From NCBI GenBank assembly GCA_016196755.1, contig JACPXC010000062.1:45043-109042 (forward strand): DNA of 64,000 bases, read 5' to 3'. Of the stretch, positions 5,310 through 35,934 are shown piece after piece. Numbering within the stretch: the stretch's first letter is position 1; every line of letters begins with the position of its first letter. Position numbers and translations under genes: made by a program. This stretch comes from Elusimicrobiota bacterium (GTDB lineage Bacteria; Elusimicrobiota; Elusimicrobia; UBA1565). The notes under the pieces are model-generated. The model was given only the letters and a program-made list of their open reading frames with translations, did not search any database and was not told the DNA's origin.

Positions 5310-5317
5310 ATCGCTCC

Positions 5318-8175: not shown

Positions 8176-8191
8176 GGCCCCTGAGCCGGAA

Positions 8192-10404: not shown

Positions 10405-10410
10405 CGGTCG

Positions 10411-11899: not shown

Positions 11900-11916
11900 G
11901 ATCTTTTGGGACTAGC

Positions 11917-12369
11917 TCAGTACACCGTCCACTCGGTGCCCTTCGAGTCCGTGTGGGTACAGTTCACCCACAGCGTCCCGTAGTTGGCGTCCCCGGTGAC
12001 GTTGTTGTAGCGCCAGCCGCCCGTGCCGCCGCCCGTCTCGGCCAAGACCGAGTTGTTCGTGAACACCGCGCTGTCGGTGTGGTAGCTCGGAGCCTTCGCC
12101 TTCGGGATCGACGACATGTACTTGCCGTTGATCGTTATCGAAGCCGCGTTGAGCGGGTAGTAGCCTTCCATGTCGCCGTAGTAGATGCTCAGGGCCGACC
12201 GAATCGCGCCGAGGTTGCCCTTGGTCGCGCCTTCGTTCGACTTGCGGATCAGCTCAGCGAACTTCGGGATGGCGATAGCCGCCAAGATACCGATGATGGC
12301 GACCACGATCATCAACTCGATGAGCGTGAAGCCCCGCTTCGCCTTGCTGCTGTTGTTCAGGTTACGCAT
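11917..12369 (-). CDS. Type IV pilin / pseudopilin (N-terminal methylation motif)
   Basis: ORF 11917..12486 trimmed to MRNLNNSSKAKRGFTLIELMIVVAIIGILAAIAIPKF (class III signal, G-1/F+1/E+5). Strong RBS GGAGGGAGGACAAA precedes the ATG. Confidence 0.85.
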   Translation of the reverse strand: MRNLNNSSKAKRGFTLIELMIVVAIIGILAAIAIPKFAELIRKSNEGATKGNLGAIRSALSIYYGDMEGYYPLNAASITINGKYMSSIPKAKAPSYHTDSAVFTNNSVLAETGGGTGGWRYNNVTGDANYGTLWVNCTHTDSKGTEWTVY

Positions 12370-12477
12370 TTTGTCCTCCCTCCTTTGCGCCGTGATGATG
12401 AATTTAGGAGTGGATTTTTCGATACGGCGCTCATGGACGACGCCATGCACACCCTGAACATCCAAAGAACTGGTCAC

Positions 12478-12506
12478 AATATACACCCGCTACTTCAAAG
12501 TGTCAA
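12478..12506 (-). promoter_or_regulatory. Sigma70-like promoter (TTGACA-17-TATATT) upstream of the pilin gene
   Basis: The reverse complement reads TTGACActttgaagtagcgggtgTATATT. It lies inside the 3' end of the upstream GT-C gene. Confidence 0.35.
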
Positions 12507-13992: not shown

Positions 13993-14076
13993 TGGGCAAG
14001 GGGGGACTTGAACCCCCAAGGGCTTTCACCCACACGGTCCTGAGCCGTGCGCGTCTGCCAGTTCCGCCACCTGCCC
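13993..14076 (-). tRNA. tRNA-Leu (anticodon CAG), CCA not encoded
   Basis: Reverse-complement cloverleaf: acceptor GGGCAGG/CTTGCCC (one G-U pair), anticodon loop CTCAGGA, long variable arm, T-arm GGGGGTTCAAGTCCCCC. Confidence 0.8.
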
Positions 14077-14130: not shown

Positions 14131-14613
14131 ATGGCCAAGCGCAAGGACGACGACGACGGACGGCTCCTCATCGGGGAGAACCGCAAGGCACGCCACCACT
14201 ACGAGATCGTGGAGGTGATCGAGGCCGGGCTCCAGCTCAAGGGGCCCGAGGTCAAGTCCCTGCGCGCGCGCCAGATCTCCTTCGAGGGCGCCTTCGCGCG
14301 GGTCACCGACGGAGAGGCCTTCCTCCACAACCTCCACATCGCGGCCTACAAGCAGAACACCCTCGAGGACATCTCCTCGACCCGCACCCGCAAGCTCCTG
14401 CTCAAGCGCCGCCAGATCGAGAAGCTGGCGACGGCCCAGGACCAGAAGGGCATGACCCTGATCCCGCTCGAGATCTACTTCAAGCGCGGCTGGGCCAAGG
14501 TGGCGGTAGCGGTCGGCAAGGGCAAGCGCGGCCCCGACAAGCGCGACGAGCTCCGCCGGCGCGACGCCACGCGCGAACTGGCGCGCTCCTTCAAAGGCAA
14601 GTTCAAGGCGTGA
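14131..14613 (+). CDS. smpB: SsrA-binding protein SmpB
   Basis: ENRKARHHYEI, LxGxEVKSLR and C-terminal basic tail KRGPDKRDELRRRD are diagnostic of SmpB. Confidence 0.9.
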   Translation: MAKRKDDDDGRLLIGENRKARHHYEIVEVIEAGLQLKGPEVKSLRARQISFEGAFARVTDGEAFLHNLHIAAYKQNTLEDISSTRTRKLLLKRRQIEKLATAQDQKGMTLIPLEIYFKRGWAKVAVAVGKGKRGPDKRDELRRRDATRELARSFKGKFKA

Positions 14614-18811: not shown

Positions 18812-20170
18812 TCAAAGGCCGGTGCCCCGCAGGACGACCGGGACGGTCTTGAGGATGACCTTGAGGTCGAGCCACAGGCTCCACCCGTCGAGATAGGTAA
18901 GGTCCAGCCTCACCCAGTCGTTGAAGTCGGGGATCTCGTGGCGCCCGTTGACCTGCCACAGGCCGGTCAGTCCCGGGCGCATCGAGAGCCGGCGCCGGTG
19001 CCAGACCTCGTAGCGCTCGACCTCGGCCGGCAGAGGAGGGCGCGGCCCCACGAGGCTCATATCCCCGGTCAGGACGTTCCAGAGCTGGGGGAGCTCGTCG
19101 AGGGAGTACTTGCGCATCAGGCGCCCGACGCGGGTCATCCTCGGGTCATCCTTCATCTTGAAGACCGGCCCTTTCATGTCGTTTCGGAGCTCCAGGTCTT
19201 CCGGCGCCCCGCCGTCGGCCATCGAGCGGAACTTAAGCAGCGTGAAGGCCCGCCCGTGGAGCCCGACGCGCCGCTGGCGGAACAGCACGGGCCCCGGGCT
19301 CGTCAGAGCCACGGACGCGGCCAAGGCCGCCAAGAAGGGGGCCAGCGCGACGAACAAGAAGGCGGATAGGACGACGTCGATGAGGCGCTTGGCGAGGAGG
19401 GCGGCGCCCGAGCGCGGGGCGGCGGGCAGGACCAAGAGCGGGAGGTCGCCGAGATAATCCACCCGGGAGAAGGCCAGCTCCGGGCTCTCCATGTCGGGCA
19501 TCAGCCAGACCTCGACCCCTCGCGCCCGGCAGACCAGCATCGCATCCTCGACGGCCGCCGGGTCGCGCCGATGCCCGCCAAAGAGCGCGAAGTCCACGAC
19601 CGAGTCGTCGAGCGCGGCCTCGAGCGCGGCGAGCCCCCCCTCCCCCAGGCGCACGGCACCGGCCGACTCGAGCCCGGCCAGCCGGCCCTCTTGGATGCGG
19701 GCGGCAGCCCGGCCCAAGGCTCCGCCGTCGCCCACCAGCAGGACACGGCGCCGCTCGCGCCCGCGGCCGCCGAGCCGGTCCAGCGCGTCGAGGGCGGCGG
19801 CGAGCGCGGCTGAGGCGAGCGCGCCCCCGGCCAGGCCGCCGTAGACGAAGAGCCGGCTCAGGTGCGGCAGGCGTAGGGTATAGACGATGAAGCCGTAGCC
19901 GAGCGCGGCGCAAAGGCAGGCGAGTGCCAGCTCGCGGCCGAGACGCTCGCGCGCGAAGAGCGGCCCGGCCCCCTCGCCGCGGCGAGCCGAGAGCACCGCC
20001 GTCACGATGAGGATCAGGATGGCGATGGTCGGGACGTAGGCGGAGAACGGCTCCAGCGGCGGCTGGTGGCCGCGCATCAGGCGGTAGAGCGCGGCGTAGG
20101 AGGCGGCTAAGACCGCCCCGGTCGCGAGGATGCGCGCGCCGTCGAGGAGCCGATGGTCTTCCCTCAGCAT
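18812..20170 (-). CDS. Polyprenyl-phosphate hexose-1-phosphate transferase (WbaP/WcaJ/EpsB family), glycan-initiating enzyme
   Basis: C-terminal bacterial sugar-transferase domain (KFRSM...DELPQLWNVLTGDMSLVGPRP), N-terminal TM bundle and central Rossmann-like linker. Confidence 0.85.
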   Translation of the reverse strand: MLREDHRLLDGARILATGAVLAASYAALYRLMRGHQPPLEPFSAYVPTIAILILIVTAVLSARRGEGAGPLFARERLGRELALACLCAALGYGFIVYTLRLPHLSRLFVYGGLAGGALASAALAAALDALDRLGGRGRERRRVLLVGDGGALGRAAARIQEGRLAGLESAGAVRLGEGGLAALEAALDDSVVDFALFGGHRRDPAAVEDAMLVCRARGVEVWLMPDMESPELAFSRVDYLGDLPLLVLPAAPRSGAALLAKRLIDVVLSAFLFVALAPFLAALAASVALTSPGPVLFRQRRVGLHGRAFTLLKFRSMADGGAPEDLELRNDMKGPVFKMKDDPRMTRVGRLMRKYSLDELPQLWNVLTGDMSLVGPRPPLPAEVERYEVWHRRRLSMRPGLTGLWQVNGRHEIPDFNDWVRLDLTYLDGWSLWLDLKVILKTVPVVLRGTGL

Positions 20171-21279
20171 GGTCGGGCCGCTAGGCGGCCGTACAATTCA
20201 ACAAAAGAACGGGCCATCGCCTCCGCGGAAAACCTCTCGCGCGCGAGCGCGCGCCCCGCCTCCCCGAGCCGGCGGGACAGCGCCGGGTCCGCCAGCAGGC
20301 GGGCCAGGGCCGCGCGCAGGCCCGCGGGATCGCCCGGCTCGACGACGAGGCCGTTGACGCCGTCCCGGCAGACCGTCGTCGTGCCGGTGCCCAGGCGCGT
20401 CGCGACGACCGGCTTCCCGCAGTGCATCGCCTCGACCAAGCTGAGCCCGAAGGCCTCGGTCCGCTCGGTCGAAGGGAGGACGGCCGCGTCGGCGGCCAGC
20501 CAGTACGGGCCGAGAGGACGGTCGTGCGGTACGGCCTCGAAGAAGACCCGGCCCGCCAGGCCCGGGCGCGCCGCCGCGGCGCGGAGCTCGGCTTCGAGCG
20601 GCCCGCTGCCGACCACCAGCAAGCGCGCGTCGAGGCCGCGCATGGCCTCCAGCAGGCAGCCCAGCCCCTTGTAGTAGACCAGCCGCCCGACGAAGACGAT
20701 CAGCGGGCCCCCGAAGCGCGCGCGCAGCCTCCGCGCCGGCTCCTCGGCGCCTTCCAGGCCCAGGCTCCCCGCATCGACCCCCAGCTCGATGACGTGGATC
20801 TTGTCAACGAAGGCGCGCAGGGCCTCGGAGCCCTCGGCGTATTCGCGGCTGGTGGCGACGATCGCGTCCGCCCGCCGGAGGAACGCCGCTTGGAGCGGGG
20901 CGAACGCGCGGCCGAGGCGCTTCTGGCGCACGATGTCGTGGTGGTACCAGGCCACCAGCCGCCCGGCGGGGCGGGCGAGCAGGACGGCGAGCACCGCCAT
21001 CGGATTCTGGAGGGAGACCTGGACGACGTCGAAACCGCGCGCCGCCCGAAGGCGGGAGACGAGAGCCGGGACCAGCGGCGTGGACGCCGCCGTCAGCCAG
21101 GTGGGCAGGACATGCTCGGTGAACCTTCCTTCCGCGCGCGTGCGGCCTTCGCGGCTCGGAGAAGCGGCCAGGAGCTCCACGTCGTGCTCTTTGGCCAGCT
21201 CGCGGCAGAGTGTATAGACGGCCGTCTCCACGCCCCCCGGCTTGTCCTGGGTGTATTTGCCGACCTGGAGGATCCTCAT
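20164..21279 (-). CDS. Glycosyltransferase family 4 (GT-B)
   Basis: EAMHCGKPVVATRLGTGTTTVCRDGVNGLVVEP (EX7E region). Start trimmed to MRILQVGKYT. Confidence 0.8.
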   Translation of the reverse strand: MRILQVGKYTQDKPGGVETAVYTLCRELAKEHDVELLAASPSREGRTRAEGRFTEHVLPTWLTAASTPLVPALVSRLRAARGFDVVQVSLQNPMAVLAVLLARPAGRLVAWYHHDIVRQKRLGRAFAPLQAAFLRRADAIVATSREYAEGSEALRAFVDKIHVIELGVDAGSLGLEGAEEPARRLRARFGGPLIVFVGRLVYYKGLGCLLEAMRGLDARLLVVGSGPLEAELRAAAARPGLAGRVFFEAVPHDRPLGPYWLAADAAVLPSTERTEAFGLSLVEAMHCGKPVVATRLGTGTTTVCRDGVNGLVVEPGDPAGLRAALARLLADPALSRRLGEAGRALARERFSAEAMARSFVELYGRLAARPC

Positions 21280-21321
21280 CGGTGAGCGCGGCGCCCACGG
21301 GTATGATATCATCGATTCCGG

Positions 21322-22320
21322 TTGAGCCCCCGCGCCAGCGTCATCATCCTGAACTACGCCGGGGAGGCGCTGCTGCCCCCCTGCCTGGCGGCGCTGGAAG
21401 CCCAGACCTTCCCCGATTTCGAGCTGATCTTGGTCGACAACGCCTCGAGCGACCGTTCAGTCGAGGTCATCGAGAGCTTCACGCGGCGCTCCCCTCTGAG
21501 GGTCAAGACCGTCCTCCTCCGCGAGAACCTGGGGTGCTGCGGCAATCAGAAGGGCCTGGATCGAGCCGAGGGCGGGCTCATCGTGCTGCTCAATAACGAC
21601 ACGCGTCCCGACCCGCGCTGGCTGGAGGAGCTCGTCGAGGCGGCGGACGCCCACCCGGAGGTCGGGGCCTGCGCGTCGAAGATGCTCGTCGAGGGGACCT
21701 CCATCATCGACAGCGCGGGCGTGGGCTATTCCACCCTGCTCAAGGGCTTCAACCACGGCGAGGGCGAAGAGGGCGCCAAGCACGACGACCCGGTCCTGGT
21801 GTTCGGCGTCTGCACCGGGGCGGCCCTCTTTCGCAGGACCCTTCTCGCCGAGATGGGATTCCACGATGAGGACTTCTTCCTCATCCACGATGACACCGAC
21901 CTGAGCTTCAGGGCCCAGCTCGCCGGCTGGAAGGTGCTTTATGTCCCGACGGCCGTCGTCCACCATAAGGTCAGGGCTTCGATAGGGCGCATGAGCGACC
22001 TCGCCGTCTATCACACGCTGCGCAACAGCGAGTTCGTGCGGATCAAGAATCTCCCTGCTGCCCTGTTCCTTCGCTTCCTCCCCGAGTTCCTCGCGGGCAT
22101 GCTCCTGGAATTCCTTTACTTCGCCGTCAAGCACGGGCGGCTGCGGCTCTACCTCCGGGCGAAGCGCGACGCGTTAAAGGCGCTGCCGCGGATGCTCGAG
22201 AAGAGGCGCTGGATCTTGGCGCACCGCAAGATCGACGACGCCGCCATCCGCGCCGTCATGACGCCCATCTTCCAAGCATCCTTCGTCCGCGAGAAAGCCG
22301 CCAAGTTCTTTTTCCAATGA
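21322..22320 (+). CDS. Glycosyltransferase family 2
   Basis: VIILNYAG...LILVDNASSD...; DxD motif (DDTD) and GT-A fold motifs. TTG start. Confidence 0.8.
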   Translation: MSPRASVIILNYAGEALLPPCLAALEAQTFPDFELILVDNASSDRSVEVIESFTRRSPLRVKTVLLRENLGCCGNQKGLDRAEGGLIVLLNNDTRPDPRWLEELVEAADAHPEVGACASKMLVEGTSIIDSAGVGYSTLLKGFNHGEGEEGAKHDDPVLVFGVCTGAALFRRTLLAEMGFHDEDFFLIHDDTDLSFRAQLAGWKVLYVPTAVVHHKVRASIGRMSDLAVYHTLRNSEFVRIKNLPAALFLRFLPEFLAGMLLEFLYFAVKHGRLRLYLRAKRDALKALPRMLEKRRWILAHRKIDDAAIRAVMTPIFQASFVREKAAKFFFQ

Positions 22321-23315
22321 TAGGCTGGAAACCCCTAGCCCCCGACTTCTGGTACCGCCTCATCGGCAAGACGGACATAGCAAGCGCCCGCTACCGCTGC
22401 CTGCTGCCTCTAGCGGAATTGCGCAAGCGCGGATTCCCGGTGGAGCTCTTCAGGGAATCCAACCGAGGACGATACAAGACCGTGCTCTTTTCCAAGACCT
22501 ACGGACGAAAGGACATCGAACTGGCTCGCGCTCTACGCGAAAAGGGCCGGGGCGTCATCCTGGACATCTGCGACAATCATTTCTACAACCCGATGGACCT
22601 GCCGCGTTACCGCGGCTTCCGTGAAGACCTCCTCAGCATGATCGCCCTGACCAACCAGGTCTGCTGCTCCACCCCCACGCTGGCCAAATTCGTCGCCGCC
22701 GAGGCGGGGCTCGAAAGGCCGCCCGCCATCGTCGCCGATCCGGTGGATCCCGCGCTGCAATCGGCCTTCCCCGCCCCCCAGCCGAACCGGCCGCAGCTCC
22801 TATGGTTCGGGGCGCACGGCGCGCAGAACGCCCCATGCGGCATGGAAGACCTTCTGCGCATCGCGGAGCCGCTGGAGCGATTGAGCCGGCGCTGGGCATT
22901 CGAGCTGGTAGTGGTCAGCAACAGCCGCTGGAAATTCCGCAAGCTCATCTCAAGGCTGCCCTTCCCGACCGCGTATATCCCCTGGGAGCGGCAGGCTTTC
23001 CCCGGGATCCTCGCCCGCGCGCGGGCGGTCCTCATTCCCGTCGCCCCGAATCCCTTCACGCTGAGCAAGTCCAGCAATCGCCTTGCCGCGGCCCTGTTCT
23101 CGGGCATCCCCGTCGTGGCGGACGCCATCCCGAGCTATCTGGAATTCGCCGAATTCGCGTCGCTGGACGATTGGGAGCGCGGGCTCGACGCCGTCTTCCA
23201 GCAGCGGCCGCTGGCCTTGGCCAAGGCCGCAAGAGGCCGGGAATACCTGTCCCAGCGCTACCTGCCGTCCCACATCGCCGCTTCCTGGGAGAAGGTCCTC
23301 GCTCCGTGGACATGA
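22317..23315 (+). CDS. Hypothetical GT-B-like glycosyltransferase
   Basis: C-terminal SKSSNRLAAALFSGIPVVADAIPSYLEFAE resembles the GT4 nucleotide-sugar binding region. ATGA-type overlaps on both sides. Confidence 0.4.
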   Translation: MIGWKPLAPDFWYRLIGKTDIASARYRCLLPLAELRKRGFPVELFRESNRGRYKTVLFSKTYGRKDIELARALREKGRGVILDICDNHFYNPMDLPRYRGFREDLLSMIALTNQVCCSTPTLAKFVAAEAGLERPPAIVADPVDPALQSAFPAPQPNRPQLLWFGAHGAQNAPCGMEDLLRIAEPLERLSRRWAFELVVVSNSRWKFRKLISRLPFPTAYIPWERQAFPGILARARAVLIPVAPNPFTLSKSSNRLAAALFSGIPVVADAIPSYLEFAEFASLDDWERGLDAVFQQRPLALAKAARGREYLSQRYLPSHIAASWEKVLAPWT

Positions 23316-24190
23316 GGCCCCAGACCAAGCAGCTCATCTCCCAAGGCGTCCTTGTTTGCCCGTCCTCCAAGCAGAGACTGCAATTGGCGGACGATGGGCG
23401 CTCGTTACTGACGGCGGACCGGAAGAAGACCTATCCGGTCATCGACGGCGTGCCCGTGCTCACCGACAGCTATGATGAGTTCCGTCGTCAGTCCGGGGAC
23501 ATGCTGCGCACGGACGCCAGAAAGCGCTCTTCTGTCGAAGGCGGCGGCTTGATCGCCAGGCTGGAACGTTATGCGCGCCGAGGATATGAGGGCGAGGATT
23601 TCCATAAAGCCTACGAATCCGTATTCCCATCGAGCGACAGCGGCCGGACCTGGGTGAACATCGGCGGCGGACAGAAAAGGAAATCCCACCAGCTGAATCT
23701 GAACATCGTCATCTTCGGCAGCGTGGACGTGATCGGCGACGCCCAAAAACTCCCCTTCGGCGACGAGACCGTGGACGCGGTTTGCTGCGAGGCGCTCCTT
23801 GAGCATCTGCCTTGCCCCCAGGAGGCCGTCCTGGAGATGCGCCGAATCCTTAAACCCGGAGGCAAGGTCTTCGCCTCCACGCCTTTCATGCAGAATTACC
23901 ACGGCTATCCCGGCCATTACCAGAACTTCACTCACCAAGGACATCGCCTGCTCTTTGAAGCCGCCGGTTTCCGCGTCTTGGCCTGCGGTACGGGCGTCGG
24001 CCCTGTTTACACGATCCTGACTTTGAACGCCTTGTTCATCAAGGAGTTCTTCCCGCGCCCCCTCTCTTCTTGGCTGAGCCGGCTCTTCCGCTATGCGACG
24101 GCTCCTCTTCGGCGACTGGATCGCCGGTTGGCTTCGCATCCATCGTCATATCTGCTGGCGTCGACCACCTATCTGACCGCCGTCAAATGA
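23312..24190 (+). CDS. Class I SAM-dependent methyltransferase with N-terminal Trm112-like zinc-ribbon domain
   Basis: N-terminus VCPSSKQRLQL...YPVIDGVPVL (Trm112-like), then DAVCCEALLEHLP..ILKPGGKVF (Methyltransf_11). Track ORF trimmed to MRPQTK. Confidence 0.65.
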   Translation: MRPQTKQLISQGVLVCPSSKQRLQLADDGRSLLTADRKKTYPVIDGVPVLTDSYDEFRRQSGDMLRTDARKRSSVEGGGLIARLERYARRGYEGEDFHKAYESVFPSSDSGRTWVNIGGGQKRKSHQLNLNIVIFGSVDVIGDAQKLPFGDETVDAVCCEALLEHLPCPQEAVLEMRRILKPGGKVFASTPFMQNYHGYPGHYQNFTHQGHRLLFEAAGFRVLACGTGVGPVYTILTLNALFIKEFFPRPLSSWLSRLFRYATAPLRRLDRRLASHPSSYLLASTTYLTAVK

Positions 24191-24244
24191 CGGCGGTCAT
24201 GTCGGCCGTTTCCACTTCCTGATACATTATCCCCGCTGGTCAAG

Positions 24245-25393
24245 ATGCGCCTCAGGCCCCGATTCATATCGCGCTGGCACCGCTGGGCGAAAGTCTCCGG
24301 CCATTACCTCTTCGGGAACGGAGGAGCCCCGCTGCCGCTCAGCCACGTCAGTCTGGAGCTCACCTATCGGTGCAACCACCGCTGCAACATGTGCTTCCTC
24401 TACGGGGACCACCTCCGGCCCCAGAATCCCGTCCTCGATACGATAGGCCGCCGGCGGGAGCTTTCGGCGGCGGAGTGGAGTCTCGCGCTCGAGGGCATCC
24501 GGGAAACCGGGACCCGGAGCCTGGTATTCACCGGCGGGGAGGCCTTTCTCAAGGAGGGCCTGCTAGGTCTCTTAGGGCAAGCGAAGGTCCTGGGCTTCTC
24601 GGTCTCGCTCCTGAGCAACGGGTCGCGGATCACGGAGGACGCGGCCCGGGAGCTGGTCCGCATAGGAGTCGACTTCGTGCGATTCTCCTTAGACGGCGAC
24701 CGGGAGACACACGATGAGATCTGCGGGGCGCCGAACTACGACCTGCTGATGGCCTCGGTCCGGAGGATCGTGCGGGCCAAGGAGTCCTTGGCCGCCGCCC
24801 AGCCCCGCCTGGGCTTCGAGAACGTCGTCCAGCGGCGCAACCAGGGGAGGATATGCAGCGTCGTGGAGGCCGCGCACCGGGAGGGGGTCGGGCACGTCAC
24901 GGTCTCCAACGTCTACTTCGCTCCCCAGCCCGGCGCGGCGGCCCGCTCCGCCGGGATGCAGACGCGCCACGTCCAACGTGAGCTCTACGCGGTGGACGCC
25001 GGGGCGCTGGCGGAAGAATTGGCGCGCGCCAGGGCTCTCGCCCGCCGATACGGCATCGACCTGCGCAGCCGGCTGGGCGGATGCGCGGAGGTCCAGCGCC
25101 TCTATCACGACCCGGCCTTCTCGTACGCGGACAAGTGCCTCTATCCGTGGCTGATGTGCCGGATCAACCCTTATGGCGACGTGATCCCCTGCACGGGGTC
25201 GAGCCTGGCGATGGGGAACATCATGGAAGCGTCGCTGGCCGAGATATGGAACGGCGAGGCCTACCTGCGCTTCCGGCGCGAGCTTCGGGCCGCCGGCCTC
25301 TTCGGGGACTGTCTCAAGTGCAATACCCTCGCCTCGGAGGATGCCCGCCGCTGGCGGTGGCTCCCCCGCCTCCGGGGTGGGGTGCCGACATGA
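24245..25393 (+). CDS. Radical SAM enzyme with C-terminal SPASM/twitch domain
   Basis: CNHRCNMC (CxxxCxxC) near the N-terminus. C-terminal Cys cluster CLYPW..C...C...C..C. Confidence 0.8.
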   Translation: MRLRPRFISRWHRWAKVSGHYLFGNGGAPLPLSHVSLELTYRCNHRCNMCFLYGDHLRPQNPVLDTIGRRRELSAAEWSLALEGIRETGTRSLVFTGGEAFLKEGLLGLLGQAKVLGFSVSLLSNGSRITEDAARELVRIGVDFVRFSLDGDRETHDEICGAPNYDLLMASVRRIVRAKESLAAAQPRLGFENVVQRRNQGRICSVVEAAHREGVGHVTVSNVYFAPQPGAAARSAGMQTRHVQRELYAVDAGALAEELARARALARRYGIDLRSRLGGCAEVQRLYHDPAFSYADKCLYPWLMCRINPYGDVIPCTGSSLAMGNIMEASLAEIWNGEAYLRFRRELRAAGLFGDCLKCNTLASEDARRWRWLPRLRGGVPT

Positions 25394-26874
25394 GGGTCGG
25401 CTTGGTCACGCTGCAAGACGACCTTAACTGCTACGGGCTCCGCTGCCTCTCGTCGGCCCTGCGCGAGAAGGGCGTGGAGACCCGGGTCCTGATGCTCGAC
25501 CGCTGGGGCGCCGACGGCGCCGCGAAGGCGTACCGCGGCGGCATGGTCCCCTACGAGAGCCGGGCCGTCGACCAGGCCATCGCGGTCCTGGATGGATGCG
25601 ACCTGGTGGGCTTCTCCGTCATGACCCTCTATCACCGGGAGAGCGCGGCATGGAGCGGCCGGATCCGTCGCGCGCTGGGCGTCCCCATCGTCTGGGGCGG
25701 GATCCATCCCATCTGCAGGCCGGAGGAGTGCCTGGAGCACGCCGATATCATCTGCCGCGGCGAGGCGGAGGAGACGCTCCCCGAGATCGCGGCGCGGCTG
25801 GCCGGCGGGGACGGCCTCGAGGGGCTCCCCGGGGTCTGGTTCCGCAAGGGGTCCGAGATCGTCCAGAACCCGGTCCGGCAGCCGGCGCGCGAGCTCGACG
25901 GCTTCCCGTTCCCGGACATCTCCGTGGACGGCCACTACGCCTACCGGGACGGGAATATCCAGCCGCTGACGGCCCCGGAACTGCTGCGGCGATGGAAGCA
26001 CACCTACATGACCATCGACGCGCGCGGCTGCGCGCTGCGCTGCACCTATTGCTGCAACAGCCAACTGGCCCGCCATTTCGATTGGACGATCGTCCGCGCC
26101 AAGGGCGTGCCGCGGATCATCGCGGAGCTGCGCGCGGCCGTGCGCCGATACCCCGGCCTCGAGGCGATCAAACTCTCCGACGACGCCTTCGGCGACCTGC
26201 CCATCGGGTACATCCGCGATTTCGCCCAGGCCTACAAGCGCGAGGTCGGCTTGCCTCTGGACATCCCCGGCTTCAGCCCCTCGAACCTGACCCGCGAGAA
26301 GCTGGAACTGCTCGTCGACGCCGGCCTCATGCGCACGCGCATCGGGATACAGGCGGGGAGCCCGAGGATCCGCCGGCTCTACGGGCGCTCGGAGACCGAC
26401 GCCCAGATCCTCCAGGCCGTCGAGACGGTGCAAAGCTTCCGGCCGCGGATAAAGCACTTCAAGATCGACGTCATCACCGACAATCCCTGGGAGTCGGAGG
26501 AGGAGGTCGTGGAATCGATCCGTCTCCTCCTGCGCCTGCCAAGGCCGTATTCCCTGGCTTTGTTCTCGCTGACCCTCTATCCCGGGACGCCCTTGTATAC
26601 CAAGGCCGAGCGCGAGGGGTTGGTCGCCAGCGATGGGACCTTCGCCCCTTATCGCCTGCACTTCTACGGCATCGATCAAGGCAAGAGGCTCAACCGCATC
26701 CTCGACCTATTCAGGCGGCCGGACCTGGATCGCCCAGGGGTCGAGAGGCTCGTCGCCGTCTATCGGGATCCGGAGGCGTTCGAAAGGGAGTATGAGCGCT
26801 ACGTGAGGAGCCTGCCGTCACCGCCCTTATGGAGGAAGGTGGCGGGTTTTATACGCGCGAGGCTCGACGTCTAA
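25390..26874 (+). CDS. Cobalamin-binding radical SAM enzyme (B12-rSAM, class B methyltransferase-like)
   Basis: N-terminal B12-binding Rossmann-like domain (MRVGLVTLQDDLNCYGLRCLSSAL...) followed by CALRCTYCCNS radical-SAM cluster motif. ATGA overlap with the upstream radical-SAM gene. Confidence 0.75.
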   Translation: MRVGLVTLQDDLNCYGLRCLSSALREKGVETRVLMLDRWGADGAAKAYRGGMVPYESRAVDQAIAVLDGCDLVGFSVMTLYHRESAAWSGRIRRALGVPIVWGGIHPICRPEECLEHADIICRGEAEETLPEIAARLAGGDGLEGLPGVWFRKGSEIVQNPVRQPARELDGFPFPDISVDGHYAYRDGNIQPLTAPELLRRWKHTYMTIDARGCALRCTYCCNSQLARHFDWTIVRAKGVPRIIAELRAAVRRYPGLEAIKLSDDAFGDLPIGYIRDFAQAYKREVGLPLDIPGFSPSNLTREKLELLVDAGLMRTRIGIQAGSPRIRRLYGRSETDAQILQAVETVQSFRPRIKHFKIDVITDNPWESEEEVVESIRLLLRLPRPYSLALFSLTLYPGTPLYTKAEREGLVASDGTFAPYRLHFYGIDQGKRLNRILDLFRRPDLDRPGVERLVAVYRDPEAFEREYERYVRSLPSPPLWRKVAGFIRARLDV

Positions 26875-26897
26875 CGACGCTTCTCGGCGCTCCCAGC

Positions 26898-28025
26898 CTA
26901 TGAAGGTCCATGGGGCGCGAGCACGAGGTCCAGCTGGCGCGCGAGGACGGCTGTCGAATAGCGGCGCTCGCAGAACTCCCGCGCGGCGGTGTGGACGCGT
27001 TCCAGCCGGACCCGGTCGCCCAAGAGCCGGAAGAGCTTATCGGCGTCCAGCTCGTCGCATGACACCGCCGCCCCCGCCTCCAGCGCTTCACGATAGGGTT
27101 CGACACGAGACGCGACCGTGACCGCCCCCATCGCGCTGTACTCGACGAACTTGGTCGCCGACCTGCATCTGTTGAACTCATCCTTGACCAGAGGCGCCAG
27201 CCCCACGACCCAGTCCTTGGTGTTGAGCATCTCGCGGAAGCGCCGATAGCCGCGCACCGCCGGCGTCGCGAGGACCTGCCGGCGCACGGCCGGCGGCCAG
27301 CGGATCTCCGCAAGGTCTCCGATCGATTCAAAGCGCCAGTCCGGATGCTCGCTCAAGAACCGCAGCAATGACGGAAGAACGACCTTCAGGTCCCGGATAT
27401 GGCTGATAGTGCCCATAAACCCAAGGGTCTTCGACGAATTGAGGCTCTTGGCCCGGCCCACGCCGGGATAGGGGCAGTAGATGCCTGAAAAAGTCCGCGC
27501 CGCCGGAAAGCGGCCGCGCATGAAGTCTTCAAGGGGCTTCGTCGAGCAATAGACCAGGTCGGCTCTCCTGGCCAGGGCTTCGCGGCAGCCGACGACAAGG
27601 GGAGCCAGATGGGCTTTCCGCTTCGCTGCCGGAAGATCAGGCGGCAGGTCGAAGAGGTTGTCGTCGATATGGAAGACGGTCTTCACTCGGCGCGGTTTCG
27701 CCCAGTCAAGGATCTGGTCGTAGAGCGGCCCGCCGTAACGGGAGAAGACCACGGTCTGCGGCTGGAAACCTGCGATGGCGGCCAAGACATCCGGACCGCG
27801 GCCGGCCTCCACGAGGGCGGCGAGCTCACCCTGCGAATAGACCAGCCCCGCTCGCGCGCCGCCGCTGAACTGGTCGGCCAGCGGGATCTCGAAGGAGATG
27901 CTGAAGGTCGGGCCTCGATCGTCTACGAGAAAGACGGTTCGCTGAGGCGCTCCCGGCTCCCCAAGCAGCGTCCCTCCTGCCCGCGGCGCCAGCAAGCCCT
28001 TAAGAAAACCCCTCAAGCTCCCCAC
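26898..28025 (-). CDS. GT-B glycosyltransferase (group-1-like)
   Basis: C-terminal TKFVEYSAMGAVTVASRVEPYRE (E..E) and GT-B layout. Confidence 0.5.
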   Translation of the reverse strand: MGSLRGFLKGLLAPRAGGTLLGEPGAPQRTVFLVDDRGPTFSISFEIPLADQFSGGARAGLVYSQGELAALVEAGRGPDVLAAIAGFQPQTVVFSRYGGPLYDQILDWAKPRRVKTVFHIDDNLFDLPPDLPAAKRKAHLAPLVVGCREALARRADLVYCSTKPLEDFMRGRFPAARTFSGIYCPYPGVGRAKSLNSSKTLGFMGTISHIRDLKVVLPSLLRFLSEHPDWRFESIGDLAEIRWPPAVRRQVLATPAVRGYRRFREMLNTKDWVVGLAPLVKDEFNRCRSATKFVEYSAMGAVTVASRVEPYREALEAGAAVSCDELDADKLFRLLGDRVRLERVHTAAREFCERRYSTAVLARQLDLVLAPHGPS

Positions 28026-28029: not shown

Positions 28030-29106
28030 TTAGGCCTGGGTCCGGCTCCAGCGAGCCAGCTCCTCGAGGCCTTCCTGCAGGGAGGTCCGCGGCGTCCAGC
28101 CCAGGAGCGCGCGGGCCTTGGCGATGTCGGCGGTAGCGTGCCGGACGTCTCCCAGGCGGAACTGGCCGGTGACGGCGATGGTCCGCTCCGGGTCCTTGCC
28201 GAAGATGCGGCAGAGCAGCCGGGCCGCCGAGAGGATGCTGACCGGCCGGCCCGACCCCAGGTTGATGACCGTGCCGCCCGCCGTCCCGGCGGCGATGCCG
28301 CTCAGTATCCCGGCGACGACGTCGTCGGCCGCCACGAAGTCGCGGATGATTCCGCCATCCTCGAAGACGGCAAGAGGTTGATTCTTGAGCAAAAGCGAGC
28401 AGAAGACCGATAAGACGCCGGTGTATGGGTTGCGCAGGCTTTGGCCGGCGCCGTAGACGTTCTGCAGCCGGAAGACCAAGGCCTTCTCCCCTAGGGCCGA
28501 TTGGGTGAGCAGATGCTCCTGCATCAGCTTGGTGGAGGCATAGATCGAGACCGGCGACGCCGGCGTCGATTCCACCGCGGCCAAGGGCTCGGAGAGCCGC
28601 ACGGCCTTCCCGTCCTCGTAGGCCGCGGGGTCGAAGCGGCCCGCGGCCAGGTCCTCTCCGCGGCGCGCGCCGGGCACCACGACCTGGCCGTCGGCCCGGC
28701 GCCACGGGCCTTCGCCATGGACCGCCCGCGAGGAGGCCAGGATCACTTGCCCGAGCTCGCCCGCGCCGGCGATCAACGCCTCCAAGAGGATGGCGGTGCC
28801 GTCCACGTTCACGCTGCAATAGCGCTGCAGCTCGTCTCGGGACTGTCCGGTGCCGGTCTCCGCGGCCAGATGGACCACATGGGTCGGTTTGAATTCCGCG
28901 ACCGCATCCTTGATGCTTCCGGCGTCGCGCAGGTCATATCGGAGGCAGGACACGTTGGAGGCGAAGTCCGGGAAAGCCGCGTCCGGCCCATGTACTTGCT
29001 CAGTGAGGTCGTCGATCACGCAGCATCGGTGGGCCGGGTCCTTCTGGAGCTCCCGGACCAGTTTAGTCCCGATAAATCCCGCGCCGCCGGTGATCAGGAA
29101 CCTCAT
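28030..29106 (-). CDS. NAD-dependent nucleotide-sugar epimerase/dehydratase (SDR family)
   Basis: MRFLITGGAGFIGTKL Rossmann motif and catalytic YxxxK (YASTK). Confidence 0.85.
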   Translation of the reverse strand: MRFLITGGAGFIGTKLVRELQKDPAHRCCVIDDLTEQVHGPDAAFPDFASNVSCLRYDLRDAGSIKDAVAEFKPTHVVHLAAETGTGQSRDELQRYCSVNVDGTAILLEALIAGAGELGQVILASSRAVHGEGPWRRADGQVVVPGARRGEDLAAGRFDPAAYEDGKAVRLSEPLAAVESTPASPVSIYASTKLMQEHLLTQSALGEKALVFRLQNVYGAGQSLRNPYTGVLSVFCSLLLKNQPLAVFEDGGIIRDFVAADDVVAGILSGIAAGTAGGTVINLGSGRPVSILSAARLLCRIFGKDPERTIAVTGQFRLGDVRHATADIAKARALLGWTPRTSLQEGLEELARWSRTQA

Positions 29107-29981
29107 CGCCCGGCGGCCTGCCGGGCCCTCTTGGCCATATAGACTTCCCGGTGAGGGACAAATCCCTTGGCGCGGTCCGCGAGAAATTGCCAGCTGCGCA
29201 GCACGAAGCCCAGGGCGCCGGAGACCCTTGAGCGCCCCTCGAGGTCGCGCAAGAGAGACGGGCGGAAGTAGCCCAGCCTGATCTGCTCTTCCACCTCGGC
29301 GCGCCCCAGGGCGCCTTCCTTCAGCATCAGCCGGACCTCCTCGTACCAGACCTCCGCGTTCCTATTCAACGGAAACACCCAGGGCTGCGTGCTCATATCG
29401 GTGTAGTGGATATTGCAGGTCGTCGCGTCCAGATGCTCCAGGCTGTTCCAGCGGAAAGGGACCGCGTAGCGGATCTCCGGCTCCTTAAGGAGGCAAAGGT
29501 CGAACATCAGGCCCTGGTAATCGTATCTCGCCTCATCCAGGCCCCCGATGATGTCGTCGATCCTCCAATCCAAGCGCGCGCAGTCCATGACCATCACGGC
29601 GCACTGTTTGGCGCGCTTGCCGGGCGCCCCAAGCTTCAGGGCGGTATGACTCTGCTCTTGGCTCAACTCTTCCTGCACGATCACCTTGGCGCCCTTGAAG
29701 TCCAGCTCCCAAAGCTCCCGGATATCCTTCATGACCAGCATGTCGGCGTCCATATAGATGGCCCGCCCTCGATACCCCGCCAAGGCAGGGATGCAGAAGC
29801 GGCTAAACGAGAACCCCGTCCTCTGAGTCTGCCGCGGATCTTTGGGCACCCGGATCGGCAGGTCGCACATGGGGATGACTTCCACCGGCAGCGAGGCGTG
29901 CCGCTTGATGGAATGCTCCAGCACCTTCACGGCCAGCAGCTGGGATCTGTCGGTTCCTACGAAGACCCGGACCGCTTCCAC
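29103..29981 (-). CDS. Glycosyltransferase family 8-like (nucleotide-diphospho-sugar transferase)
   Basis: IYMDADMLV DxD motif, GT-A fold, similar to LPS glucosyl/galactosyltransferases. Confidence 0.6.
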   Translation of the reverse strand: MEAVRVFVGTDRSQLLAVKVLEHSIKRHASLPVEVIPMCDLPIRVPKDPRQTQRTGFSFSRFCIPALAGYRGRAIYMDADMLVMKDIRELWELDFKGAKVIVQEELSQEQSHTALKLGAPGKRAKQCAVMVMDCARLDWRIDDIIGGLDEARYDYQGLMFDLCLLKEPEIRYAVPFRWNSLEHLDATTCNIHYTDMSTQPWVFPLNRNAEVWYEEVRLMLKEGALGRAEVEEQIRLGYFRPSLLRDLEGRSRVSGALGFVLRSWQFLADRAKGFVPHREVYMAKRARQAAGR

Positions 29982-33791: not shown

Positions 33792-34703
33792 ATGCCAGGG
33801 AGAGCGATGTCAATTGATTACAATGAGGTCTCAATGGAGGCCGCTGCCGAGATGAGCGCCGCCGTTTCGCGCGTGTACAGCTCCGAAAGCGAGTTGCGCC
33901 ACCCACGCGCGCTGGCCTCGGCGCTTCGGCGCGACGCCGGCGAGGCATTCCGGCTCGGCTGGACGCTGTTTCGCCGGGATATCTCGCTGCAGCGCCGGCA
34001 GGCCTTCTTGGGCGCCTCCTGGGTGCTGCTGCCGCCGGTGCTGCTGGCGTTGACGCTGCGAGCCGCGCAGGAATCGCAAGTCTTCCGCATCGCGCCGACC
34101 GAGCTCCACTACCCTCTCTACGTCATCCTCGGCATGGTGTTTTGGCAGACCTTCTCGGACGCCCTGCAGGCGCCGATCCAAGGGATTACGTCGGCTCGGC
34201 CGTTCCTGGGCAAGATCCACTTCCCCCGCGAGGCGATCGTGGTCTCCAAGTTCTACCAATCGCTGTTGCACCTCGCGCTGAAGGCTTTTCTCGTGGCCGG
34301 CGTCTTCCTCTGGCTCGAAACGCCGCTTCCGGCCGGCGCCGTCTGGGCCGCCGCGCTGGTCTGGCCCTTGCTGCTGCTTGGAATGGGACTGGGCATGCTT
34401 TTGGCGCCCCTCGCCGTCGTGTTCGCCGACATCGGTAAGGCCGCGTCTATCCTCTCGGGCGTCTGGTTCTTCCTGACGCCGGTCATATTTCCCCGTCCAG
34501 CCGAAGGGCTGTTCGGATCGCTGATGCGCTGGAATCCGGTCACGCCGCTGCTCGAGGCCTGCCGCGACGCCGTCGCTCTCGGCGTTCCTCCTCAGCAGCC
34601 GTCCTGGCCGTTTGCCGCCGCGGCGGCCGCGGCCGCCTTCATCATCGGCTGGCTCGTCTATCGGCTGTCGCTGTCGTTCGCGGTGGAACGGTCGCAATCC
34701 TGA
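33792..34703 (+). CDS. wzm: ABC-2 type polysaccharide exporter permease (Wzm/KpsM-like)
   Basis: ABC2_membrane signature (FRRDISLQRRQAFLGASWVLL...) and 6 TM helices. Confidence 0.8.
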   Translation: MPGRAMSIDYNEVSMEAAAEMSAAVSRVYSSESELRHPRALASALRRDAGEAFRLGWTLFRRDISLQRRQAFLGASWVLLPPVLLALTLRAAQESQVFRIAPTELHYPLYVILGMVFWQTFSDALQAPIQGITSARPFLGKIHFPREAIVVSKFYQSLLHLALKAFLVAGVFLWLETPLPAGAVWAAALVWPLLLLGMGLGMLLAPLAVVFADIGKAASILSGVWFFLTPVIFPRPAEGLFGSLMRWNPVTPLLEACRDAVALGVPPQQPSWPFAAAAAAAAFIIGWLVYRLSLSFAVERSQS

Positions 34704-34713
34704 CGCGAGCGGC

Positions 34714-35934
34714 CTACGAGCTTTCCCAAAGGTGCGGCTGGAAGAGCGAGCCGCGCGTCAGCCCGTCGCGAGGAGCCACCCGGAACCGGACGCCGTCGCG
34801 CGCGTCGTAGCTGAGCAATCGGCTTTCCCTGATATTGATCTTCATCTGATAATGGCCCGGGCCTAGATTGAGCACCGGCAGCCGGCAGCGCAGCTCCCCG
34901 ACACCCTCCCGGACCGCCAAGCCCTCGCTGGCATCCATGTTGTGCAGGCGCAGCATCCACCCCTCTCCCCAGCCGCTCTCCCGGACAACGGCGGTCACGC
35001 GCAGTCCGCTCAGGGCCTTCGCGCTGTGGACCTTCAGGCAAAGCATGACCGGCTCGCCGGTGGTAGGCAGGTCCAGGATGTTGCCGTCCCCCCCCCTGAA
35101 ATACACTTCGAGTATCCGCAGAACGCCGTCGGCGGACGCCGCCGAGGGCGCCTCCGGCGACTCCGCGCCCTCCATCGCCAGAGCTTGCTCGTAGCGACCG
35201 AGCGCCTCCTCGAGCGAGCCCAACGAGCCCATGCGGCCGGCGCGAAGGTAAAGGCCACGCTCGCAGGCCGCTCCGAGGGCCCATGGATTATGGGAGACGA
35301 ACATAAGGGCCAGTCCGCCCTTAAGCATCTCGTCGAGCTTCCGATAGCATTTCAGCCGGAACTTCATATCCCCCACGGCGAGGGTCTCGTCGATCAGGAG
35401 CAGGTCGGGCCGGGAGAACACCGAGCATGCAAATCCCAGGCGAGCCTGCATCCCCGAGCTGTAGGTCCTCAACGGCGCGTCGACGGCCTCCCAGAGCTCG
35501 GCGAAGTCGACTACCGCGTCGAATACCTTGCGTATCTCCGCTCTTGCAAGCCCCAGCAACGACAGGTTGAGCGCGACGTTCTCCCGCCCGGTCAAGAGCG
35601 GATGGAAGCCCGCGCCCAGCGCCAACAGCGGCGCGACGCGGCCCCGGACCTCGACGCGCCCGGCGTCGAGCTTGATCAAGCCGCTGATCAACTTGAGCAG
35701 CGTCGTCTTGCCGCTGCCGTTGCTGCCCATCACCCCGAGCGACTCGCCCGGCGACAGCTCGAAGGAAACATCGCGAACCGCCCAAAACTCGCGCCCGCGC
35801 AGCCGGGCGCCCGAGCGCCGCAGGCCGAGCACCTCGCCCAGCGCGTCGACGGATCCATAGGCCATGGAGAGGCCGGCATGGCGGCAGAACTTCTTCGAGA
35901 CGCCCTCGACCCTCAGCACCCGCTCAGGCCGCAT
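34714..35934 (-). CDS. wzt: ABC polysaccharide exporter ATP-binding protein with C-terminal carbohydrate-binding domain (Wzt-like)
   Basis: Walker A GSNGSGKTTLLKLISG, signature LSGG-like motif, Walker B LLLIDE, plus a ~150-aa C-terminal beta-rich extension as in Wzt of capped O-antigen systems. Confidence 0.8.
   Translation of the reverse strand: MRPERVLRVEGVSKKFCRHAGLSMAYGSVDALGEVLGLRRSGARLRGREFWAVRDVSFELSPGESLGVMGSNGSGKTTLLKLISGLIKLDAGRVEVRGRVAPLLALGAGFHPLLTGRENVALNLSLLGLARAEIRKVFDAVVDFAELWEAVDAPLRTYSSGMQARLGFACSVFSRPDLLLIDETLAVGDMKFRLKCYRKLDEMLKGGLALMFVSHNPWALGAACERGLYLRAGRMGSLGSLEEALGRYEQALAMEGAESPEAPSAASADGVLRILEVYFRGGDGNILDLPTTGEPVMLCLKVHSAKALSGLRVTAVVRESGWGEGWMLRLHNMDASEGLAVREGVGELRCRLPVLNLGPGHYQMKINIRESRLLSYDARDGVRFRVAPRDGLTRGSLFQPHLWESS

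Follow-up and report, generated by a model that had tools for sequence, protein, structure and literature searches.

A translationally coupled Twitch and cobalamin radical-SAM pair as a candidate sugar-tailoring module in an O-antigen-type locus of an uncultured Elusimicrobia bacterium

On what kind of molecule do radical-SAM enzymes act when their genes lie in a surface-polysaccharide locus? The question is raised by a 64,000-nucleotide stretch of DNA (hereafter the window) from an uncultured Elusimicrobia bacterium (a MAG), which carries an O-antigen-type, ABC-transporter-dependent (Wzm/Wzt) polysaccharide locus with two such enzymes in one operon. The initial annotation described a trio of a Trm112-domain methyltransferase, a SPASM radical-SAM enzyme and a B12-binding radical-SAM enzyme acting on a sugar or lipid-linked intermediate. 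In our analysis a sugar or lipid-linked glycan, and not a peptide, is the best-supported target of the radical chemistry, and we assign a probability of roughly 0.6 to the reading that the two radical-SAM enzymes form a translationally coupled, co-inherited sugar-tailoring module that was recruited here into an ABC-transporter-dependent O-antigen-type operon. The genes concerned are listed below by position in the window.

18812..20170, minus strand: initiating polyprenyl-phosphate sugar transferase (Pfam Bac_transf, E 8e-67)
21322..22320, plus strand: GT2 glycosyltransferase, operon gene 1, TTG start (Pfam Glycos_transf_2, E 2.8e-24)
22317..23315, plus strand: GT-B-like protein of unknown specificity (weak Glyco_trans_1_2 match, E 0.01)
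23312..24190, plus strand: class-I SAM methyltransferase, MT (Pfam Methyltransf_11, E 4.9e-13)
24245..25393, plus strand: Twitch-type radical-SAM enzyme (Pfam Radical_SAM, E 6e-17; SPASM, E 1.8e-13)
25390..26874, plus strand: predicted cobalamin-binding radical-SAM enzyme, class-B architecture (Pfam B12-binding, E 1.1e-13; Radical_SAM, E 2e-14)
26898..28025, minus strand: Glyco_trans_1_2-like glycosyltransferase, convergent with the operon (Pfam PF13524, E 2e-6)
28030..29106, minus strand: SDR nucleotide-sugar epimerase/dehydratase (Pfam Epimerase and GDP_Man_Dehyd, E about 3e-34)
29103..29981, minus strand: GT8-like glycosyltransferase (Pfam Glyco_transf_8, E 7e-8)
33792-34703, plus strand: Wzm, ABC exporter permease (Pfam ABC2_membrane)
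34714-35934, minus strand: Wzt, ABC exporter ATPase (Pfam ABC_tran and Wzt_C, the latter at 24.6 bits, under the 30.4-bit Pfam cut-off)
39323-41035: Wzy_C ligase-like protein (Wzy_C)

The three open reading frames that were first singled out were confirmed with Pfam domains, and they close an operon of five genes (GT2, GT-B-like, MT, Twitch, B12). ATGA overlaps are shared by the GT2 stop and the GT-B-like start (at 22317), by the GT-B-like stop and the MT start (at 23312), and by the two radical-SAM genes (at 25390); the ATGA coupling described for the whole trio therefore stands for the Twitch-B12 junction and fails for the MT-Twitch junction, where the genes are 54 nt apart (24191-24244). 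The B12 gene ends 23 nt before the next gene (26875-26897), and gaps this small leave no room for a peptide gene. A promoter and terminator scan of 20900-27300 gave zero matches internal to the operon, and an Rfam scan detected neither a cobalamin riboswitch nor any other RNA close to it, the window having two tRNAs only. Methylmalonyl-CoA mutase and MeaB are encoded in the window, which indicates that the genome uses B12. The locus was typed as Wzm/Wzt because of the ABC exporter at 33792..35934; an ABC-2 permease, a Wzt_C ATPase, a phosphoglycosyl transferase and glycosyltransferases were all found. The operon does have glycan genes as neighbors, but not, as had been stated, only glycosyltransferases: SDR, MBOAT, Wzm, Wzt, Bac_transf and Wzy_C genes accompany the GT4 and GT1 genes (Pfam). 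The GT-B-like protein has a full-length homolog of 353 aa (31% identity over 348 aa) in L014, a glycan locus from Planctomycetota in which the Twitch-B12 pair is present too.

What is conserved is a Twitch gene followed by a B12 gene, not the trio of MT and two radical-SAM genes that had been proposed. The B12 gene directly follows the Twitch gene in 12 of 12 orthologous loci, with junctions that range from an overlap of 4-22 nt to a gap of 14 nt and most commonly are a 4-nt overlap. The identities of the two proteins co-vary (for example, 72/80% in L098 and 47/52% in L015), and B12 + Twitch fusion proteins were found in independent samples. A scan of genome contigs returned one orthologue (L004) and nine relatives at 28-33% identity. 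Owing to the generic pattern LDGDR[ED]TH, unrelated SPASM enzymes swamped a scan of metagenomes based on the Twitch alignment, and only L018 and L019 were orthologous. The MT is not co-conserved with the pair: its homologs at other pair loci are weak, partial matches, and we rejected it as a member of the module after finding a homolog beside the pair at no other locus. Its identity as a methyltransferase held, but the Trm112p domain (PF03966) attributed to it is sub-threshold on residues 13-46 (18.7 bits against a gathering cut-off of 22, E 0.0017), and the motif region holds one Cys only. Unrelated class-I MTs are frequent in such clusters.

Contexts of the pair are mixed. Of the independent contexts in which the orthologous pair occurs, roughly half are glycan loci (the window, L003, L014 and L017/L100), and no recognizable glycan genes accompany it in L001, L002, L015/L016/L018 and L098, the last being the closest relative (80% identity). 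Local glycan genes are thus not required, and the substrate could be common to many cells. The comparison of homologous neighborhoods that had been suggested yielded neither a sulfatase nor a conserved small ORF or RRE/PqqD domain beside the pair, and a glycan context in about half. Among the neighbors of the pair in glycan loci, the GT8-like gene alone shows recurrent co-conservation, in three of four such contexts, where it has 34-39% identity to the C-terminal halves of larger proteins (478 aa in L014, 458 aa in L017 and 449 aa in L100). In L099 the pair adjoins a Steroid_dh (polyprenol-reductase-like) gene.

The full SPASM motif, CX9-15GX4C ... CX2CX5CX3C ... C, comprises seven cysteines and binds two auxiliary [4Fe-4S] clusters. 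The first radical-SAM protein has the CX3CX2C core motif as C43-x3-C47-x2-C50 (C47 and C50 invariant, C43 present in at least 90% of 79 Twitch-family members) and keeps four of the seven SPASM cysteines, as C298-x17-C316 ... C356-x2-C359, the first part of which includes C298-x12-G311-x4-C316; it lacks the CX2CX5CX3C block, and none of the 23 residues beyond C359 is Cys. A profile of 14 Twitch orthologues aligns residues 293-367 to the Twitch domain of BtrN (4m7s) at E 4e-9, with the cysteines in register. Because of the four retained cysteines and this alignment, we assign the C-terminal domain to the Twitch type, and the original SPASM designation is withdrawn; the NCBIfam model N_Twi_rSAM matches 78 of the 79 family members (best E 3e-33). 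The missing block allows at most one auxiliary cluster, and the sequence has a single putative auxiliary-cluster site at C298, C316, C356 and C359. With only about 35 residues ahead of the radical-SAM core, Pfam found no PqqD, RRE or other peptide-recognition domain in the protein.

BtrN, the butirosin 2-deoxy-scyllo-inosamine dehydrogenase, is the founding Twitch radical-SAM enzyme, and SpeY, HygY and NeoN are its relatives. In BtrN as in the window protein, the radical-SAM core precedes an abbreviated SPASM-like domain that has a single auxiliary-cluster site; BtrN lacks a peptide-recognition domain, and its substrate is a small, carbohydrate-like molecule. The window protein is longer (382 aa against about 250), matches BtrN in sequence in the C-terminal domain only and belongs to a surface-polysaccharide locus instead of an aminoglycoside pathway. 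Its highest structural similarity scores are to anSME/SPASM peptide maturases; anSME and SkfB, PqqE, SuiB and MftC share the core and the first SPASM half (CX12GX4C) with it, but it differs from them in having no CX2CX5CX3C block, no RRE/PqqD domain and no nearby precursor or sulfatase.

The identification of the second protein as a B12-binding radical-SAM enzyme was upheld. It has about 490 aa, with an N-terminal Rossmann B12-binding domain, a radical-SAM barrel with CX3CX2C and a short C-terminal helical cap. Base-off cobalamin (Cbl) binding is marked by G-x-S/T-x-X after beta3, Gly-Gly on beta4 and Gly-Glu starting alpha5 (PMC9204698). The corresponding G74-F-S76-V-M78, G103-G104 and G124-E125 do not vary across 14 orthologues, except that position 78 is either Met or Leu, and the AF2 model places them at the ends of strands 72-76 and 100-103 and ahead of helix 126-138. 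The protein fits the class-B cobalamin radical-SAM architecture and is predicted to bind cobalamin, and its fold neighbors are class-B enzymes. The top structural neighbor, MgmA, methylates a protein and counts against a sugar substrate; BtrN, BlsE, DesII and AprD4 are among the structural neighbors of the pair.

We also compared the proteins with named NCBIfam families (HpnJ, ladderane B12-rSAM, BchE, PhpK, RiPP C-MT, PqqE, NirJ, AhbD, MftC, W-cofactor maturase and SkfB). No cut-off was reached by any of the three proteins or by the 79 wider family members, which came nowhere close (best E 1e-41), so the assignment to a curated radical-SAM subgroup failed and membership in these families was rejected. 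The Twitch protein scored at most 102 bits against a cut-off of 380, its best sub-threshold matches being cofactor enzymes (W-cofactor maturase, PqqE, NirJ and AhbD). For the B12 protein the top match was the ladderane-type B12 radical-SAM enzyme (70 bits against 360) and the third-best was HpnJ (63.5 bits against 577); its PDB and NCBIfam matches have E 1e-8 to 1e-19, far under family cut-offs.

At the family level the tie of both radical-SAM families to sugar genes is strong. GT2-Twitch fusion proteins exist (P0172 and P0249); relatives at 25-30% identity lie in SDR-WbqC-Twitch-(B12 x2)-GT2-rSAM-MT cassettes (L102 and L103) or in a Wzy_C/GT4/Trm112-MT cluster (L101); and in L010 small GT2s, GT-C transferases, an SDR and an MT-GT2 fusion are interspersed in an array of B12 paralogues. 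We found no characterized member of either family, and the curated NCBIfam models all stay under cut-off.

We also searched for a precursor peptide among all ORFs of 20-130 aa that lie at most 2 kb from the pair, comparing the 382 such ORFs of 10 loci all-against-all. No conserved small ORF emerged, in agreement with the initial annotation; the matches reduced to noise from high GC content, shadow ORFs antisense to the Twitch gene and L017/L100 synteny, and a precursor peptide was rejected. Maturation of an anSME/sulfatase type was likewise rejected, given the incomplete SPASM motif and the absence of a sulfatase nearby.

We infer a sugar substrate because three ATGA overlaps join the pair to GT2, GT-B-like and MT genes inside a locus with Wzm/Wzt, Bac_transf and Wzy_C, and because of the missing RRE/PqqD domain and small ORF, the BtrN-type Twitch domain, the GT2 fusions and the SDR-WbqC-GT2-MT cassettes. 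The sugar or lipid-linked target first proposed is thus favored by the fusions, the cassettes and the lack of a peptide, with the non-glycan half of the pair contexts weighing against it. By analogy, the chemistry is probably C-methylation plus oxidation or epimerization. In the Twitch enzyme, a 5'-deoxyadenosyl radical would take a hydrogen from a sugar C-H, and the single auxiliary [4Fe-4S] cluster could accept an electron to leave a keto-sugar, as in BtrN; alternatively, the radical may be re-quenched to give an inverted center, as in an epimerase. The cobalamin enzyme would make a second sugar radical, most likely quenched by the methyl group of methylcobalamin in a C-methylation of the GenK/GenD1/MoeK5 type, and less likely would rearrange or dehydrate the ring, as do HpnJ, OxsB and AprD4. 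Nucleotide-sugars, polyprenyl-phosphate-sugars and lipid-linked oligosaccharides are the candidate substrates. The modified residue would best be installed or used by the GT8-like transferase, and the class-I MT would be an independent, locus-specific O-methylase.

Precedents for cobalamin radical-SAM enzymes acting on sugars include the C-methyltransferases GenK, GenD1, Fms7 and MoeK5, along with HpnJ and OxsB (PMC9204698), and Cds and again HpnJ (PMC13459092). The four C-methyltransferases resemble the window enzyme in their N-terminal Rossmann Cbl domain and radical-SAM barrel, in their GxSx, GG and GE motifs and, by analogy, in an expected sugar-carbon substrate; they differ in that the sequence kinship is remote, that the window-type enzyme always has a Twitch radical-SAM partner and that it occurs in glycan loci of uncultured phyla instead of antibiotic clusters.

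This interpretation must be weighed against others. One, which we consider unlikely, makes the pair an autonomous module with a housekeeping role or with lipids or cofactors as targets (for instance a membrane-lipid head group or chain, a quinone or a tetrapyrrole); in this genome it would merely have ended up in the locus and would not act on the local glycan. The loci in which the pair stands alone, the lipid enzymes (ladderane-type and HpnJ) and cofactor enzymes among the weak NCBIfam matches, and the Steroid_dh neighbor agree with it; the ATGA coupling into the GT2/GT/MT operon, the GT2-Twitch fusions, the recurring SDR-WbqC-GT2 cassette and the co-conserved GT8-like gene do not, and the named-family scores are about 4-8 fold under cut-offs. 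As the substrate of HpnJ is a glycosyl head group (PMC9204698), even this interpretation in part comes down to sugar chemistry.

Unlikely to a similar degree is that the cobalamin enzyme does not methylate but ring-contracts, rearranges or dehydrates (HpnJ, Cds, OxsB or AprD4 type) and, with the Twitch enzyme, turns a hexose into a carbocycle, deoxy or branched sugar. HpnI-HpnJ-HpnK convert hopanoid glucosamine to a cyclitol ether, and Cds is the archaeal calditol synthase; we know of no Twitch partner in the hpn pathway. In these systems a GT2 adjoins a B12-type radical-SAM enzyme that remodels the attached sugar (PMC9204698, PMC13459092), and the same adjacency recurs in L010 and L103, mirroring hpnI-hpnJ. 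The rank of HpnJ among the matches also speaks for such chemistry, as do the separate class-I MTs of many clusters, by which methylation needs would be met otherwise. The HpnJ score is low, and the window showed no hopanoid genes. AprD4, which performs C3'-deoxygenation in apramycin, is not known to use cobalamin and has an NADPH reductase, AprD3, as its partner in place of a second radical-SAM enzyme, whereas the Cbl motifs of the window enzyme are intact. The majority of characterized cobalamin radical-SAM enzymes methylate, HpnJ, BchE and OxsB being among those that do not (PMC9204698).

Finally, it is improbable that the pair matures a peptide or protein encoded elsewhere (a RiPP, a sulfatase-type formylglycine, or side-chain methylation as by MgmA and Mmp10): the Pfam SPASM call and the RiPP C-methyltransferases among the weak NCBIfam matches favor this, against the short N-terminus, the partial cysteine set, the narrow gaps, the failed small-ORF search, the lack of a sulfatase among annotated window neighbors and fusions to GT2 in place of peptide-binding domains.

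There is good documentation of radical-SAM enzymes that tailor sugars in antibiotic pathways (BtrN, GenK, AprD4 and MoeK5) and in lipid head groups (HpnJ and Cds); a limited literature search (O-antigen, capsule, WbqC, C-methyl) found no characterized case on a bacterial surface polysaccharide. We tentatively suggest, as a reading that falls somewhat short of even odds, a large glycan-tailoring system in which the Twitch family and cobalamin radical-SAM families, beside GT2 (polyprenyl-phosphate-sugar type) or GT-C transferases and in some cases fused to GT2 or each other, build surface glycans with C-methylated, branched, keto/epimerized or carbocyclic sugars. Its carriers would be Elusimicrobia, Planctomycetota, Nitrospinae, Omnitrophota and further, mostly uncultured, phyla, and it would be a radical-SAM polysaccharide branch without a characterized member. 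The GT2-Twitch and B12-Twitch fusions are ready test constructs. If O-antigen or EPS sugars are the targets of this pair and of related enzymes, the glycans of many environmental bacteria would contain C-methyl, branched or carbocyclic residues beyond the reach of ordinary sugar-nucleotide chemistry, the synthesis of such glycans would depend on cobalamin and low oxygen, and a function would be assigned to a family with over 700 sequence clusters (715 for the Twitch enzymes at 50% identity).

The methyltransferase (MT), radical-SAM (rSAM) enzyme and B12-binding rSAM enzyme that the initial annotation had described as a trio were all found as open reading frames on the plus strand, where they form the 3′ end of a five-gene operon:

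21322-22320, plus strand: GT2 glycosyltransferase, gene 1; ATGA overlap with gene 2
22317-23315, plus strand: GT-B-like protein, gene 2; ATGA overlap with the MT gene
23312-24190, plus strand: MT, gene 3; Pfam Methyltransf_11, E = 4.9e-13
24245-25393, plus strand: first rSAM enzyme, gene 4; Pfam Radical_SAM, E = 6e-17, and SPASM, E = 1.8e-13; ATGA overlap with gene 5
25390-26874, plus strand: B12-binding rSAM enzyme (B12-rSAM), gene 5; Pfam B12-binding, E = 1.1e-13, and Radical_SAM, E = 2e-14

A scan for promoters and terminators gave no match inside the operon's coding run, and two terminator-like matches lie at its 5′ edge (21236-21251 and 21601-21618). The proposed ATGA coupling of the trio holds between the two rSAM genes but not between the MT and the first rSAM gene, which are 54 nt apart; similarly, the label of Trm112-domain methyltransferase was borne out for the methyltransferase domain, whereas the Trm112p match at the N-terminus was sub-threshold (18.7 bits vs 22). 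Genes around the operon encode a Bac_transf initiating transferase, a GT4, a Glyco_trans_1_2-like protein, an SDR epimerase/dehydratase, a GT8-like protein, an MBOAT protein, Wzm, Wzt with a Wzt_C domain, two more methyltransferases, a GT1 and a Wzy_C ligase-like protein, and they define an ABC-transporter-dependent, O-antigen-type locus. Together with a GT9 heptosyltransferase and another GT4 at 55-57 kb of the window, this locus suggests that the host is a diderm with LPS.

Elsewhere in the window, which has a G+C content of about 68-70%, an island at 6000-8200 (57% vs about 70%) probably arose by insertion at a tRNA. A second low-GC stretch at 52000-54000 (56%) carries an AAA_14/DUF4143 ATPase; a DUF4143 protein also lies near the related rSAM genes at another locus (L001, below), which is probably a coincidence. 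No tmRNA was reported within the window by Rfam. The features concerned are:

6357-7208, minus strand: IS200-like Y1 transposase, low-GC island
7261-7347, plus strand: tRNA, low-GC island
7507-8175, plus strand: PIN-domain protein, low-GC island
13993-14076, minus strand: tRNA, upstream of smpB
14131-14613, plus strand: smpB
52227-53738, minus strand: AAA_14/DUF4143 ATPase

The domain of the first rSAM enzyme that had been called SPASM is instead a Twitch domain, the shortened, BtrN-type form: the CX2CX5CX3C block is absent, and the only cysteines of the domain kept across 14 orthologues and 79 wider family members, those of C298-x12-G311-x4-C316 and C356-x2-C359, match BtrN. In a profile alignment of the orthologues, this region matches the Twitch domain of BtrN at E = 4e-9, cysteine for cysteine, and the AF2 model of the enzyme is confident (pLDDT 80.8). 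Cys160 (HDxIC; window positions 24722-24724) is invariant in the 14 orthologues, whereas the consensus of the wider family has Arg at this position (HDxIRG); this candidate orthologue-specific catalytic residue could, for example, donate a hydrogen atom, as happens in rSAM epimerases.

The B12-rSAM enzyme also gave a confident AF2 model (pLDDT 83.2), with MgmA (29.7), CysS (28.6), TsrM (27.8), AprD4 (26.8), TokK and OxsB as structural neighbours. All three cobalamin (Cbl)-binding motifs, as defined from the structures of OxsB, TsrM and TokK (PMC9204698), are invariant among its orthologues: G74-x-S76-x-(M/L)78 after β3, G103-G104 on β4 and G124-E125 before α5. Genes for methylmalonyl-CoA mutase and MeaB are present in the window as well, so the organism uses cobalamin; this run of genes is interrupted by a secretion ATPase, and the closest relative of the two rSAM genes (L098) adjoins T2SSF:

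41016-42569: carboxyl transferase
42971-43915: MeaB
45445-47244: T2SSE/MshEN secretion ATPase
47234-48934: methylmalonyl-CoA mutase

For each rSAM protein, homologue searches recovered about 20 orthologues (47-80% identity), the two sets lying on the same contigs. The Twitch gene stands directly 5′ of the B12 gene in 12 of the 12 loci recovered (the window, L001, L002, L003, L014, L015/L016/L018, L017, L098, L099 and L100; L004 is the same contig as L014), the spacing ranging from overlaps of 4-22 nt up to a gap of 14 nt, and from locus to locus the two proteins co-vary in their identity to the window counterparts. The trio did not hold together as a unit, as the MT lies outside this conserved pair and matched other MTs only weakly and in part (tblastn, blastp). 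In the window, a glycosyltransferase operon thus holds a Twitch-rSAM/Cbl-rSAM pair whose two genes are translationally coupled and inherited together.

We favour the reading that the pair tailors a sugar, to which we assign a probability of roughly 0.6. Glycan loci surround the pair in the window, L003, L014 (Planctomycetota) and the syntenic L017 and L100 (NeuB, CTP_transf_3, GT2s), and a GT8-like protein is co-conserved with it in three of four independent glycan contexts. The window GT8-like protein (29103-29981; 292 aa) aligns with its 449-478-aa homologues beside the pair (L014:341-1777, L017:12432-13808 and L100:3866-5215) over their C-terminal half alone, at about residues 206-446; no counterpart of their N-terminal 200-aa domain was detected in the window. 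The GT-B-like operon protein has a full-length homologue in L014. The context of L099 is ambiguous, with an SDR epimerase/dehydratase and a Steroid_dh protein (PF02544, polyprenol-reductase-like) upstream of the pair (L099:142-1886); this arrangement may hint at a reduced polyprenol carrier.

What speaks most against the sugar reading is how often the orthologous pair occurs on its own; action on some widespread substrate other than a glycan, for instance a lipid or a cofactor, must therefore be considered, although we think it unlikely. Recognisable glycan genes are absent around the pair in L001, L002, L015/L016/L018 (Gemmatimonadetes) and L098, the closest relative (80%/72% identity), where the pair has T2SSF and a DAO oxidoreductase as neighbours. 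In the non-glycan context of L001, a third, B12-like rSAM protein (571 aa, L001:6910-8625; 26% identity to a B12-rSAM of L003) is encoded just upstream of the pair; it has no Pfam B12-binding match, and small unannotated ORFs lie near it. We consider it improbable that the target is a protein or peptide encoded elsewhere, more so than a lipid or cofactor. When 382 small ORFs from the flanks of the pair in 10 loci were compared all against all, no conserved candidate emerged, in agreement with the earlier claim that a precursor peptide is lacking. The annotated genes of the window include no sulfatase, the rSAM core of the Twitch protein is preceded by only about 35 residues, this protein has no Pfam match to RRE/PqqD, and the window has intergenic gaps of 54 and 23 nt, so that none of the signs of peptide or protein maturation named by the initial annotation was found.

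Sugar tailoring also accords with the wider families, both of which recur alongside glycan enzymes and in some cases are fused to them. An exhaustive profile search placed 715 clusters (50% identity) in the Twitch family at E ≤ 1e-30, and none of 79 members tested reached a curated NCBIfam cut-off. Two members are predicted GT2-Twitch rSAM fusions (P0172, 651 aa; P0249, 807 aa), and others (P0125, P0216/P0345; 1246-1927 aa) are predicted to join a B12-rSAM to 2-3 Twitch modules, the P0216 type being found in two independent samples (P0216, P0345). Three Twitch relatives at 25-30% identity all lie within sugar clusters (3/3):

L101: Wzy_C, GT4, Trm112p-MT, GT4, Twitch, GT2
L102, 8170-13808: SDR epimerase, WbqC, Twitch, GT2, small 285-aa SPASM rSAM, MT
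L103 (Nitrospinae), 4006-12713: as L102, with two B12-rSAM genes directly after Twitch, the first overlapping it by 4 nt

The L102/L103 cassette is compact and conserved, and lies near an SMC gene in both genomes; WbqC also adjoins B12-rSAM genes in two further loci (L005 and L013). B12-rSAM relatives at 28-33% identity form tandem arrays, and their pooled neighbourhoods contain GT2, WbqC, SDR, class-I MT and GT-C (PMT_2/TMEM260-like) genes. One such array (L010:1-22109, MAG contig CAZTBA010000004.1) interleaves at least six B12-rSAM genes with three small GT2 genes (one an MT-GT2 fusion), two GT-C genes, one SDR epimerase gene and genes for two DUF362 Fe-S proteins. We take the GT2/GT-C layout around these arrays to resemble polyprenyl-phosphate-sugar pathways of the ArnC/ArnT type, and the L010 array looks like a heavily radical-tailored pathway of this kind.

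The specific chemistry is much less certain than sugar tailoring itself. By analogy with BtrN and its relatives, the Twitch enzyme would take a hydrogen atom from the sugar and oxidise or epimerise that carbon; the Cbl enzyme, if it resembles GenK, GenD1 and MoeK5, would C-methylate an unactivated sugar carbon, or might alternatively catalyse a ring rearrangement or dehydration like HpnJ, OxsB or AprD4. As substrate we would expect a sugar linked to a nucleotide or to polyprenyl, and it may be the residue that the co-conserved GT8-like transferase handles.

Among known systems, the nearest are Twitch enzymes of the BtrN type, the sugar C-methyltransferases that depend on Cbl, and the HpnI/HpnJ pair. 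The proteins of the window have their cofactor architecture in common with these but pass no curated family threshold. A limited literature search found no characterised rSAM enzyme for bacterial surface polysaccharides. What is new here would be radical-SAM sugar tailoring moved to surface glycans, by an uncharacterised, widespread family pair.
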